DNA from: Candidatus Binatia bacterium
GTDB lineage: Bacteria; Desulfobacterota; Binatia; Bin18
Assembly: GCA_963666315.2 (NCBI GenBank)
Contig: CAXXHG010000005.1
Location: forward strand, 1-64,000
Direction of reading: 5' to 3'
Length of the DNA stretch: 64,000 nt
This document shows, one piece after another, positions 36,798 to 40,535 of this stretch. The notes beneath the pieces were generated by a model that saw nothing but the letters and a program-made list of their open reading frames with translations, made no database searches and was not told the DNA's origin. Numbering within the stretch: the first letter of the stretch is position 1; the number at the start of each line of letters is the position of its first letter. Both the position numbers and the translations under genes were made by a program.

Positions 36798-37262
36798 ATG
36801 AAACTGTCGAAAAAAAGTGAATATGCGCTGAAGGCGCTGAGTTGTCTGGGGGCGCCTGGGGCACCTGAGGTGCTAGCGATCCAAGAAATTGCTCGCCGCG
36901 AACACATTCCCAAGAAATTTTTGGAGCAAGTGCTTCTGGCACTCAAGCGGGCGGGTATTGTGCAGAGCACTCGGGGAAAAGCGGGCGGGTATACTTTGTG
37001 TAGCGATCCGGAGACGATCACCCTACGCGAGGTGGTGTGGGCGGTAGACGGTCCACTTGCTCCTCTCCCTTGCGTGTCCGACACCAACCCGAGGAAGTGT
37101 GCCGACTGTGTGAGCTTCGAACACTGTTGGCTACGGGAGGTGATGTTAGAAGTGGGTGAGTCGATTGCCGCCGCCTTTGCTCAGGTGAGTTTGGCCGAGG
37201 TGTGCAGGCGTGCGGAAGAAAGCCGACGGCGCGGATCGCACGTGGCTATGTATGACATCTAG
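36798..37262 (+). CDS. Rrf2-family transcriptional regulator (CymR/IscR-like)
   Basis: KKSEYAL, IPKKFLEQ, STRGKAGGY, GPLAPLPC plus three more Cys; divergent from the sulfite reductase. Confidence 0.92.
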   Translation: MKLSKKSEYALKALSCLGAPGAPEVLAIQEIARREHIPKKFLEQVLLALKRAGIVQSTRGKAGGYTLCSDPETITLREVVWAVDGPLAPLPCVSDTNPRKCADCVSFEHCWLREVMLEVGESIAAAFAQVSLAEVCRRAEESRRRGSHVAMYDI

Positions 37263-37330
37263 TTTCGTTCTGCTGCCAAGAGAGCCAAGGGAGCTGTGCT
37301 TTTATGAAGAATCAAGCGGGGAAATAAGAC

Positions 37331-37359
37331 TTGACGTAGACACTCAGCTTTTCTAAGGT
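37331..37359 (+). promoter_or_regulatory. Putative sigma-70 promoter of the GST gene
   Basis: TTGACG-N17-TAAGGT. Confidence 0.5.
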
Positions 37360-37402
37360 CAGAACACACAAGCCGCGTATACGACCGGGAGAGGAGCCGT
37401 CG

Positions 37403-38026
37403 ATGAGCATCAAGAGAAAGTTGTTTGACTATCTGCCTTGACCGTTTGCTATGAGAACGAGGATCGTTCTCAAAGAAAAAGATCTGGACTTTGATCGCAT
37501 CTTGGTGGATCTGCCGAGCAAAGAACAGAAAGAGCCCTGGTTCCTGGCCATTAATCCGTACGGTAAAGTGCCCGTGCTCGTCGAGGAGGGAGCCTGGATC
37601 TACGAGTCGGCCATTTGTAATGAGTATCTGGAAGACAAATATCCAACGCCGTCTTTGTCGCCGTCTGAGCCCAGTGCAAAGGCTGAGATGCGGTTGCTTA
37701 TTGAAATGTGTAACAGCCGGTTCGTACCGCCCGTGATTCGTTTGCTCTACACCAGCCGTAAGCCCAACGCTGAACAAGATCCGGAGCGCATCGCGCAGAA
37801 TAAAGACCAACTCAGCGAACTCTTCCCCCAGTTGGAGGAGCAACTCCAAGACCAGGACTACCTCATGGGGGAGTATAGCCTGGCGGATTTGACGTTTACG
37901 CCGTTTCTCGGTTTGTGTGACAAGGTCAGTGTTGACTTGAGTCCCTTTCCAAAAGTTTCAGCCTGGGCCGAACGGCTCAAAAACCGGCCCAGCTATGAAG
38001 AGGTCAGGATTGGGCTGACGGGTTAG
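37403..38026 (+). CDS. Glutathione S-transferase, probable selenoprotein (UGA13 = Sec), 207 aa
   Basis: GAGGAG RBS, ATG 37403, MSIKRKLFDYLP-TGA-PFAMRTRIVL in frame with INPYGKVPVL and YESAIC; TGA 37439-37441 falls at the C/S-P-F catalytic position. Confidence 0.88.
37452..37472 (+). promoter_or_regulatory. Bacterial SECIS-like hairpin
   Basis: Perfect stem TGAGAACGA/TCGTTCTCA with a GGA loop, starting 10 nt after the UGA. Confidence 0.8.
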
Positions 38027-38081
38027 CGACACGTTTTCATACTCGTATCTCCTCAATAATATGAGACCAGGACGAGACCAG

Positions 38082-38114
38082 TGGGGGCGGTTCATAAACC
38101 GCCCCTATTTTTTT
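38082..38114 (+). terminator. Intrinsic terminator (REP-like stem)
   Basis: GGGGCGGTT-CATA-AACCGCCCC followed by a T7 tract. Confidence 0.8.
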
Positions 38115-38206
38115 GTGAGAATCTTTTCAAGCTGGACTAGATTTTCCCCGCTCCCTAGTTGATAGTAAGCCGTCGAGGCTCAGAATACATGAGGAAGCAC
38201 GCAGGT

Positions 38207-39796
38207 ATGAGTATCGATAGGCGTTTTGTTGTCGTGCTCCTCTCCCTGGCTTTGCTCTTGGGCTCTTCACCCGCATTCGCCCAACCTGCGAAAGTCTTTG
38301 TCAACTCGGCCGTGCTGGCTATCGGCGACCGGCCGGTGCTACTTGATCTCAAAAGCCAGCGTATTGTCAGCCACGGCGAAAACTTTGAACCCGACCAGAG
38401 TCTGCGACCGGGGGCTGAACCGCGTAAGGTTTCCTCGTTTCGGTGTGTACTACTGCGTGACCTGGAGAACGGCCGGCTGCGCTATGAATGGGAGCGTGAG
38501 ATCGAGTATCCCTTCCGTGAAACGTGGCGATACACTGAGGTGATAAGCGGCCTGGATGGCGTCGTGCTCGGACAGGATGGCTTCCACAGTCCGGTCCGAC
38601 GGGCGATGTCTGCTGCCCGTATTGCCGCACGCCAAAAAGAACTGCGTCGTTCGCCGGTGTCGGTGCTCATTCATGCCTTGAGTCGCTCGGGGTCCTTTTT
38701 GCGCTTGATGGATCAAACCATACACGGTCGTCGCCAGGTCGTGGTTTCGTTTGATGACAACGGCCAGCTCGTGCTGTTAGCCATTGATGCCGAAACTCGA
38801 CTGCTCACCAAAGTCGTGTTTATCGAAGATGACCCTCTACACGGGGATGTGCAGAATGAGGTGTTTTATGCCGGTTGGCGCCAGGTCGGAAAACTCAAGC
38901 TGCCGTTTGAACTGACGTATCGCGTCCACGGCCAGACCGTCATGGTCGAGCATATCGAGGTCATTCAGAATGACCTCGATCTCTTTGAGGTTGATTTCGT
39001 CATCCCGGAAGAGATTCCGCAGCCTGAGGAGTGGGACGGTGAGCGCGGGGAGCGAAGTTCGCACTGGGTACACCGGCAGGTGGCGCAGGGACGGAGCGTC
39101 GATGCACCCCAGACCAGGATTGTCCTCCAGCAACTCGTACCTGGTGTCATGCATATTACTGGAGGTAGCCTCCAGAGTCTCGCCATTGAGATGGACGATC
39201 ATCTGATCGTGGTAGAAGCGCCACTCGACGACGCACATTCTCTTGCCGTATTAGATGTCCTGGGACAGAGATTTCCGACCAAGCCGGTCCGGGTTGTGGT
39301 CAACACCCATTTTCATACTAGCCATGCTGGCGGGTTACGAACGTATGTCGCCGCTGATGCGGTGGTTGTCACCAGCGCGCTGAACGTTGAACTGTTCCAA
39401 GATGCCTTTCGCGCCCTGCATACCCAAGTCCCGGATACCTTACATCGCGACCCCAAAATCGCAATCATCGAGTCCGTTAGCGCTGAACGTAAATTCCTCG
39501 TTGGGGCCAACCGAGTGGTAGTCGTCTATCCCATTGAGACCCCGCGTGTGGACGGCATGCTGGTCGTGCATCTCCCGGAGGAGCGACTCCTTTATGTAGC
39601 GGACCTGTTTACGCCGGGTGCGGTCCGGCAGGTCTCGGCCTGGTGCCGCGAACTGCTCGACGCCATTGAGCGCTATGGCCTCGCGGTTGACATTATTGTC
39701 GGCAGTCAGGGGGGCGTGGGAACTCTTGATGAGTTGCGTCGCGTCGTCCACGGCGAAGACGTGCAAGAGAAGCTGGCAGTCGAGCAGATGCGTTAA
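38207..39796 (+). CDS. Secreted protein with C-terminal MBL fold and degenerate metal site
   Basis: Signal peptide (..SPAFA), VVEAP, VNTHFHTSHAGG, YVADLF; start may be 38189. Confidence 0.8.
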   Translation: MSIDRRFVVVLLSLALLLGSSPAFAQPAKVFVNSAVLAIGDRPVLLDLKSQRIVSHGENFEPDQSLRPGAEPRKVSSFRCVLLRDLENGRLRYEWEREIEYPFRETWRYTEVISGLDGVVLGQDGFHSPVRRAMSAARIAARQKELRRSPVSVLIHALSRSGSFLRLMDQTIHGRRQVVVSFDDNGQLVLLAIDAETRLLTKVVFIEDDPLHGDVQNEVFYAGWRQVGKLKLPFELTYRVHGQTVMVEHIEVIQNDLDLFEVDFVIPEEIPQPEEWDGERGERSSHWVHRQVAQGRSVDAPQTRIVLQQLVPGVMHITGGSLQSLAIEMDDHLIVVEAPLDDAHSLAVLDVLGQRFPTKPVRVVVNTHFHTSHAGGLRTYVAADAVVVTSALNVELFQDAFRALHTQVPDTLHRDPKIAIIESVSAERKFLVGANRVVVVYPIETPRVDGMLVVHLPEERLLYVADLFTPGAVRQVSAWCRELLDAIERYGLAVDIIVGSQGGVGTLDELRRVVHGEDVQEKLAVEQMR

Positions 39797-39813
39797 AGAA
39801 GCGTTGAGCAAGC

Positions 39814-40338
39814 ATGCGAGTTGAGAAAAACTGCTCTACTGATGATGAATCTTGCGATGCATCTTGGATGCGTGCCGCCCTTGCCGAAGCTGAGCGGGCG
39901 GAAGCGGCCGATGAGGTGCCGGTCGGCGCGGTTGTGGTGAGCGGTGCACGTATCGTTGGCAGAGGACACAATGCTCCGCTCTCCTCAAATGATCCGACTG
40001 CTCATGCCGAAGTCCTGGCTTTACGCCAAGCGGCTGGTGAGATGCGGAATTACCGTTTAGTGGATACAACGCTTTACACGACTGTGGAACCGTGTCTGAT
40101 GTGTATGGGCGCGATGCTACATGCTCGGGTGAAGCGATTGGTCTTTGGTTGCTTTGATCCCAAAGCTGGGGCAGCTGGATCCCTGTACAATGTACCAATG
40201 GATACGCGCTTGAATCATCGCCCGGAAGTGACGAGTGGGATAGGTGCAGAAGACAGTCGGACGCTCTTACAACGCTTTTTCCGAACCAAGCGCCAGCGTG
40301 AGCGTCATCTTTGCGCCCCTATAGGAAATCCCCTATAG
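39814..40338 (+). CDS. tadA: tRNA adenosine(34) deaminase
   Basis: EVPVGAV, DPTAHAE, EPCLMC, DPKAGA, LNH. Confidence 0.95.
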   Translation: MRVEKNCSTDDESCDASWMRAALAEAERAEAADEVPVGAVVVSGARIVGRGHNAPLSSNDPTAHAEVLALRQAAGEMRNYRLVDTTLYTTVEPCLMCMGAMLHARVKRLVFGCFDPKAGAAGSLYNVPMDTRLNHRPEVTSGIGAEDSRTLLQRFFRTKRQRERHLCAPIGNPL

Positions 40339-40352
40339 TAAGTGACAAGCCC

Positions 40353-40442
40353 GGAGAGGTGGCAGAGTCCGGTCGATCGCGCACGACTCGAAATCGTGTA
40401 TACTTTCGGGTATCGGGGGTTCGAATCCCCCCCTCTCCGCCA
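40353..40442 (+). tRNA. tRNA-Ser(CGA)
   Basis: Acceptor stem GGAGAGG/CCTCTCC, anticodon arm CACGA-CTCGAAA-TCGTG, long variable arm, TTCGAAT T-loop, encoded CCA. Confidence 0.97.
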
Positions 40443-40535
40443 GGTGGTTTCCCCGGAAGCTGGGAACGTTACTCCGCTTCTGACAGTTGATACAAGACAA
40501 GAGCGACCGCATTACATAAGACAGGCGGACTTATT

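Follow-up and report, generated by a model that had tools for sequence, protein, structure and literature searches.

A GST-like gene of Candidatus Binatia, shortened in public annotation, in which an in-frame TGA very probably encodes selenocysteine

The analysis of the window, the whole 64,000-nucleotide stretch of a Candidatus Binatia contig, points to a genuine bacterial selenoprotein gene, in which the UGA at codon 13 of a GST frame is very probably recoded to selenocysteine (Sec). The full coding sequence of this predicted selenocysteine GST-like protein, delimited by translation and by the Pfam GST_N_3 and GST_C models, runs from 37403 to 38026 on the forward strand and comprises 207 codons followed by a TAG stop at 38024-38026, with the putative Sec-encoding TGA at 37439-37441 opening a U-P-F-A motif. 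A U-P-F selenoenzyme with a SECIS element just 3′ of the UGA had been proposed from the letters of this DNA alone (hereafter the sequence-only reading), and this proposal is supported here by the Sec genes of the genome, by the alternation of TGA and Cys codons among relatives and by covariation within a hairpin downstream of the codon.

Gene callers place the start of this gene elsewhere. In the mechanical ORF list the GST begins at ATG 37451 (the codon of Met17, 37451-37453, forward strand), as the sequence-only reading had remarked, and is 191 aa long; the same false start recurs in the database matches. That reading had also pointed to a GAGGAG motif and to an ATG lying in frame 16 codons earlier. 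Both were found: the Shine-Dalgarno-like GAGGAG occupies 37391-37396 on the forward strand, 6 nt before ATG 37403, and an AGGAG-type motif stands ahead of the equivalent upstream ATG in most of the 41 related loci described below; in the window sequence no Shine-Dalgarno motif precedes ATG 37451. The only stop between the two ATGs is the single TGA, which lies at codon 13 in the YLP-TGA-PFA context previously described. Moreover, the 16 added codons show homology to the beginning of the GST N-domain, with Pfam GST_N_3 covering residues 7-83 and its profile position 1 falling at residue 7; GST_C models match too, and a PF13409 (GST_N_2) match (E 1.8e-20) spans residues 13-78, that is, from the Sec onward.

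The sequence-only reading predicted that annotation pipelines would cut this protein short, and public databases hold exactly such entries. A protein search returned 510 matches, the best 120 of which were listed, and the first 94 of these share 63-98% identity with the window protein. All but one of the 94 are 191-193 aa long at 91-92% query coverage and thus begin at Met17; the exception, P0011 (204 aa, 68% identity), carries C-P-F at the position of the U-P-F in the window. The 191-residue public proteins are annotation artefacts. The same mistake runs through a whole clade of entries: 93 of the 94 best clusters lack strand 1, the first beta-strand, as well as the catalytic residue, and functional, structural and metabolic inferences drawn from them are flawed.

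Conservation of the TGA was examined in a genome scan with one genome per species, which yielded 80 loci. Of these, 43 form a close clade (60-98% identity), most of whose records are titled Candidatus Binatia; two of them (L079 and L080) run off their contigs before codon 13, leaving 41 loci to be counted. Codon 13 is TGA in 40 of these 41 loci (64-98% identity) and TGC in one, L066, the counts being drawn from related and hence not independent sequences. Of 51 distant homologues (35-46% identity), one further locus (L089) having been omitted because its N-terminus is cut, 45 carry a Cys codon at the aligned site, 5 a Ser codon and one a TGA. The TGA/Cys alternation anticipated by the sequence-only reading is thus present, in the 40 TGA loci against one TGC, in the CPF of P0011 and in the predominance of Cys among distant homologues, and close relatives do not uniformly carry TGC or TCA.

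This observation is further strengthened by a class sample of 401 genomes, in which an orthologue was detected in 51 at E <= 1e-70. An in-frame TGA is present in 48 of these 51, one has no stop and two are cut before residue 30; among the 48, 46 have one TGA alone, one has an extra TAA and one has two TGA codons, the position of the TGA in this sample being inferred from overlap with the 41-locus set. The orthologue occurs in 49 of the 54 genomes of the window's family and in the one genome from another family of that order, and none was found in 345 genomes (0/345) from the 18 other families of the class sample. In one family of Candidatus Binatia the gene has become fixed.

Codon usage on either side of the TGA reveals how this stretch has been maintained. 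In a set of 35 distinct sequences, the residues of codons 5-16 are preserved through many synonymous codons (five at Arg5, six at Leu7, five at Leu11, four at Pro14 and four at Ala16), and the sole replacements are Pro/Ala at position 12 and Phe/Tyr at position 15. Such synonymous variation with a constant peptide indicates that translation runs through the codons ahead of the TGA and across it.

Immediately downstream lies a candidate bacterial SECIS-type hairpin (37452-37472, forward strand, inside codons 17-24), composed of a perfect 9-bp stem that pairs 37452-37460 with 37464-37472 and a GGA loop at 37461-37463. Its stem begins 10 nt after the TGA and its loop lies 19 nt from it, which agrees with the geometry and the G-led loop that the sequence-only reading had described. 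The predicted fold energy is -10.5 kcal/mol for the core and -11.4 kcal/mol when counted from the UGA. As a single sequence, the 65-nt fold is unremarkable (z-score -1.71; 12 of 200 shuffles at least as stable), and since thermodynamics alone is unremarkable, the case rests on comparison with relatives.

That comparison reveals a conserved helix with compensatory change. For the 9-bp helix, 98.3% of cells are paired over 39 distinct sequences, and in a control in which the partner was slid by 1-3 columns pairing falls to 30-43%. Four stem pairs are invariant, and the covariation consists of two wobble-position pairs only, each changing on both sides. Pair 27/33, formed by the third positions of Thr19 and Ile21, is G-C in 27 sequences, A-U in 12 and unpaired in none, while pair 24/36, formed by the third positions of Arg18 and Val22, is A-U in 23, G-U in 9, G-C in 5 and unpaired or otherwise in 2. 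In one subclade, 14 of the 17 rows have A-U at pair 27/33, a state that recurs in L066 in another clade, and the G-C state reappears in L055 and L057 and, separately, in L047; on the protein tree, the switch between G-C and A-U at this pair needs about four separate double changes. The check for covariation suggested by the sequence-only reading was thus positive. Codon choice within the hairpin is also narrow (Arg20 AGG in 35/35, Arg18 AGA or AGG in 34/35, Leu23 CTC in 33/35), with synonymous choice in codons 18-23 restricted more tightly than for the same amino acids outside the hairpin. The weaker lower stem mentioned in that reading survived only in part: 2 bp do form in the window, but with 67.9% of cells paired across relatives this lower stem was rejected as a conserved feature.

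The available text of a recent review (PMC13188914) gives rules for bacterial SECIS elements of the bSECISearch type, namely a 3-9-nt loop with a G within its first two positions, an upper stem of 4-16 bp, a UGA-to-loop distance of 16-37 nt and a fold energy of -7.5 kcal/mol or lower, and the window hairpin, with its 3-nt loop, 9-bp stem, 19-nt distance and -10.5 to -11.4 kcal/mol, fits this consensus. Its loop begins with G then G and is at the minimum size. The window stem has no bulged U; the E. coli fdhF SECIS element has one. A test against a SECIS model, which the sequence-only reading had recommended, gave a mixed outcome: the window passes all four rules as coded here, as do 41 of 41 TGA genes, but the rules discriminate poorly, since 20 of 50 non-TGA outgroup genes pass them at the same position. 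Thermodynamics was likewise rejected as a discriminator, because the non-TGA outgroup genes fold as stably there (mean fold energy -13.4 kcal/mol, vs -13.1 kcal/mol for the TGA genes, at a G+C of 0.56 vs 0.48). The published rules alone are therefore weak evidence, and it is conservation, covariation and codon restriction that carry the argument. Scanning 37300-37600 against Rfam (E up to 10) returned two chance matches only, to miRNA and lncRNA models, and no curated family.

These data bear directly on the best-surviving alternative, which holds that the TGA is the true stop of a conserved 12-codon leader ORF, that the product is a 191-aa protein translated from ATG 37451, and that the hairpin serves coupling or regulation. 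Public gene calls do use ATG 37451 (93 of the best 94), the hairpin sequesters this ATG and could in principle regulate it, and the Met17 codon does not vary among the distinct sequences (35 of 35); this invariance, however, is accounted for by the U and G of the ATG, which are the first two stem bases of the hairpin. A separate start at this codon would have no Shine-Dalgarno motif before it and would yield a product without strand 1 and the beginning of helix 1. Furthermore, the peptide encoded upstream shows homology to strand 1 of GSTs and to the CPF motif, the whole being a single frame in the Cys forms, and the P-F-A codons between the TGA and the ATG keep their amino acids through synonymous changes. 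The apparent constraint on both sides of the TGA excludes a 12-codon leader ORF combined with a separate Met17 start, and we regard this alternative as very unlikely compared with recoding of the UGA to Sec.

Recoding requires a dedicated machinery, and the sequence-only reading had called for a search for it. The window's genome (4.99 Mb, 47 contigs, 92% complete) encodes selA (592.8 bits), selB (378.3 bits) and selD (308.3 bits), all above curated cut-offs, together with a tRNA-Sec (66.8 bits, above cut-off) that ARAGORN also reports as tRNA-SeC with anticodon tca. In addition, a selB fragment scores above the cut-off in five of five genomes tested, among them the genome of the TGC-bearing L066.

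Several features of these genes were recorded alongside. The selA and tRNA-Sec genes adjoin, about 57 nt apart on opposite strands (G000:C43:402598-404077; L001 and L014), and selB and selD lie on contigs other than that of selA. The selD gene (L009 1390-3663, reverse strand; G000:C28 around 39602-40519) is a 757-codon fusion in which an N-terminal Pyr_redox_2 domain (residues 10-317) is followed by the AIRS and AIRS_C domains of SelD; fusions of pyridine-nucleotide-disulphide oxidoreductases with SelD have been reported before. Within the window itself, a tRNA-Ser(cga) gene at 40353-40442 on the forward strand gives a sub-threshold match to the tRNA-Sec model (32.9 bits), owing to its long variable arm.

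If the TGA were read as a standard amino acid (Trp, Gly or Cys) and not as Sec, whether by generic read-through or because the code had changed across the genome, this would leave an open frame that looks identical to that expected under Sec insertion. Nevertheless, among 1189 stop-to-stop frames of at least 400 codons, which are mechanical frames and not validated genes, TGA closes 349, TAA 424 and TAG 416; TGA thus serves this genome as an ordinary stop and is not reassigned genome-wide. With selA, selB and selD free of internal stops, a complete Sec system present, and the TGA placed where a redox Cys would stand and followed, at the distance of a SECIS, by a conserved hairpin, this explanation is highly improbable.

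The TGA was also recovered in independent assemblies, which answers the possibility of a sequencing error raised by the sequence-only reading. The window stretch was found in runs from 15 studies, mostly labelled marine sediment, and four sequencing runs were compared, all of them as assembled contigs whose depth, like the gaps in cover by the RNA libraries, is uninformative on expression level or transcript ends. Specifically, 37393-37548, TGA included, is matched without differences by a 156-nt contig of a metatranscriptome library, a second RNA-library contig covers 37409-37647 and a DNA contig covers 37360-37579; among the differences listed for these contigs, none falls before 37528, the list leaving out a further 13. 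This shows that the TGA is no assembly slip. The RNA-library contig is no proof of transcription, because DNA carry-over is possible. It is scarcely credible that the gene is a pseudogene or that the TGA is a sequencing or assembly error for TGC or TGT, for although TGA is one base from TGC and one relative has TGC, the TGA recurs in 40 of 41 loci from separate assemblies, many of which are closed chromosomes, in 48 of the 49 class genomes covering the codon and in an RNA-library contig without differences, and the remaining GST frame is intact and under purifying selection.

The direction of change between Sec and Cys was examined on a protein tree whose outgroup consisted of nine Cys loci from the distant set, with L079, L080 and L081 omitted as partial. 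The close clade forms one branch with 100/100 support, and L066, the Cys form, lies nested among the TGA sequences, in three starred clades of 4, 7 and 12 rows (support 98/88, 96/81 and 97/81). If the root lies on the outgroup branch, Sec would be ancestral to the clade and the TGC of L066 would be a later one-base replacement. The hairpin of L066 has a stem mismatch, folds at only -5.0 kcal/mol and fails the SECIS rules; this fits relaxed constraint, as a single case.

Other members of the wider set are of separate interest. Several public MAG records with this Binatia-type locus (L040, L041, L061, L062, L066, L071, L072, L074 and L081) are titled "uncultured Enterobacteriaceae bacterium" or "Klebsiella pneumoniae"; they take tree positions among Binatia sequences, and the titles look like mislabels. 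A second, distant Sec-type GST was found in another genome of the same class (L036, G263:C11:13177-13764, reverse strand, 37% identity), with TGA at the same aligned position, a U-P-W motif and a stable downstream structure (-25.8 kcal/mol over 72 nt, from a single fold); it may represent an independent or older Sec lineage. The window's genome also holds a paralogous GST with Ser at this position and the motif S-P-Y-C (L037, G000:C15:245924-246517, reverse strand, 41% identity).

To place the residue within a fold, we used an AlphaFold2 model built on 28 sequences (mean pLDDT 87.7, pTM 0.84), in which strand 1 comprises residues 5-9 and helix 1 residues 14-25. Residue 13 is placed by this model at the classical thioredoxin-fold active-site position; with strand 1 at 5-9 and Sec at 13, the 191-aa version lacks both strand 1 and the active-site residue. 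The best solved sequence relatives are the SspA-like Burkholderia proteins 6v91 (E 9.4e-27) and 4qq7 (1e-26), followed by RegF 4hoj (2.1e-21), whose CPF aligns residue by residue with U-P-F. The SspA-like proteins differ in having Cys rather than Sec, their identity to the window protein is about 30%, and the NCBIfam SspA model gives the window protein 64.9 bits against a cut-off of 314. Chains of GSTO1 match at E 2.3e-20 over query residues 7-198. Human GSTO1, of the Omega class, likewise has x-P-F-A at the N-terminus of helix 1, but it carries Cys where the window protein would have Sec and is 241 residues long as opposed to 207; unlike GSTO1, the window protein begins four residues before strand 1 and has no N-terminal extension.

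The sequence-only reading had labelled the protein as Omega/Xi-type, and this label was not established. Omega-class GSTs carry class-specific N- and C-terminal extensions, and membership in this class is not supported here in view of the 207 residues with strand 1 at 5-9, the better scores of SspA-like proteins (E 1e-26) than of GSTO1 (E 2.3e-20) and the best structural matches being Phi and Ure2p, even though the Omega-type motif is present in U-P-F-A (residues 13-16, helix 1 N-terminus, Sec for Cys). Xi-class GSTs carry C-P-W-A; membership in the Xi class, that of the glutathionyl-hydroquinone reductases, is not supported either, given the U-P-F-A motif and no Xi or GHR protein among the 60 listed sequence matches or the listed structural matches. 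Class assignment by structure was itself set aside, as Foldseek returned Phi, Ure2p, SspA-like and Zeta entries at similar scores (TM up to 0.88), and no NCBIfam equivalog reached its cut-off (maiA 84 vs 171.05; FzlA 75.1 vs 300). Overall, the window protein belongs with the Cys-type GSTs, as a Sec-type member whose motif is Omega-like.

Instead of conjugation, Cys-type GSTs carry out thiol transfer, deglutathionylation and reduction, and the Omega-class cysteine serves thiol-transferase and reductase chemistry. By analogy, the window protein would most likely be a glutathione-dependent thiol-transferase or reductase acting via a Se-S intermediate and not a conjugating GST, a function inferred from motif and fold only. 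Cys72 and Cys103 are invariant in the Sec clade and not in the wider family, the Cys-type outgroups having Ile or Val at position 72; Cys72 lies three residues past the E-S glutathione-binding motif. A role of Cys72 or Cys103 as resolving thiol is speculation. Most of the Cys-type relatives L082-L114 (40-46% identity) carry a glutaredoxin-like C-P-F-C dithiol motif; unlike them, the U-P-F-A of the Sec clade has no second Cys in the motif.

Taken together, we propose the following course of events. Translation would start at ATG 37403, and on reaching the UGA at 37439-37441 the ribosome would meet SelB and Sec-tRNA(Sec) recruited by the hairpin at 37452-37472, so that selenocysteine would be inserted as residue 13 and elongation would continue to the TAG at 38024-38026. 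The predicted product is a 207-residue cytosolic-type GST-fold protein in which Sec falls after strand 1 and immediately before helix 1, the site of the catalytic cysteine in Cys-type GSTs. Such an enzyme would reduce or deglutathionylate a glutathionylated or oxidised substrate via a Se-S intermediate with glutathione, and a second glutathione would resolve this intermediate; resolution by Cys72 instead is speculative.

The gene neighbourhood is partly conserved. Upstream lies an Rrf2-family regulator gene (36798-37262, forward strand; Pfam Rrf2, E 8.8e-35), which is found upstream in 24 of the 43 related loci, and beyond it, on the opposite strand, a NirA/sulfite-reductase-like gene. The next gene downstream, also on the forward strand, encodes an MBL-fold protein (38159-39796, start codon uncertain, weak Lactamase_B match) and spans 545 codons, with a hydrophobic, signal-peptide-like N-terminus and about 330 N-terminal residues without a match. 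As to its function, only weak metallo-beta-lactamase and alkylsulfatase-type matches were obtained, all far below cut-offs. This gene follows the GST in 39 of 43 related loci, and three of the four loci lacking it sit at contig ends or are cut; judged from these loci, the linkage between the putative Sec-GST and the MBL-fold gene is conserved. A strong intrinsic-terminator-like hairpin with a T-run (38080-38119, forward strand; 13 pairs, seven of them G-C) stands after the GST stop, between the two genes.

The locus offers a test case that combines a compact bacterial SECIS element, natural compensatory variants and one natural Sec-to-Cys revertant, and it suits work on the advantage that Sec confers, compared with Cys, at the active site of a GST. 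It also adds selenium dependence to the known biology of the uncultured Binatia; our literature search for selenoproteins in Binatia found nothing relevant.

Comparison with known systems places the gene in an existing category. GST was among the 15 new selenoprotein families described from the Sargasso Sea in 2005 by Zhang, Fomenko and Gladyshev, with four unique sequences according to the available text (PMC1088965), and the 2008 GOS survey, in the part accessible, counts 12 Sec GST sequences against 1,036 Cys homologues (PMC2398784). The accessible portion of the Olavius symbiont study reports the GST-like family as not detected (PMC1976440). Reviews of 2022 and 2026 (PMC9312934, PMC13188914) list the family, with MEK9676863.1 and PPR62222.1 as representatives, and in their available sections describe such proteins as still functionally uncharacterised. 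The remark of the sequence-only reading that Sec-GSTs had been predicted from marine metagenomes and were little characterised accords with these sources as far as their accessible text goes. Since GST-like proteins have been a listed prokaryotic selenoprotein family since 2005, the Sec-GST kind is not new and the window gene opens no new category.

Set beside this family by description only, the window gene shares with it the GST domain (COG0625 / PF13409), a single Sec specified by a TGA within the frame, a bacterial SECIS element downstream of it and widespread Cys homologues. It differs in provenance and distribution, as the published examples come from ocean-water metagenomes whereas the window sequence occurs mainly in marine-sediment runs and its clade is confined, among the genomes searched, to one Candidatus Binatia family. 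The published family is described, in the text available, without a motif, while the window clade carries U-P-F-A. It is a tentative and rather doubtful suggestion that this clade is a separate, undescribed Sec-GST lineage and no orthologue of the Sec-GSTs reported from ocean water in 2005 and 2008. On this view it is fixed across one Candidatus Binatia family, with a SECIS element within codons 17-24 whose stem supplies the AUG at which gene callers all make their false start; its chemistry may be distinctive, with Cys72 or Cys103 acting beside Sec13 as resolving thiol, and the enzyme may have a functional tie to the conserved downstream exported MBL-fold protein.
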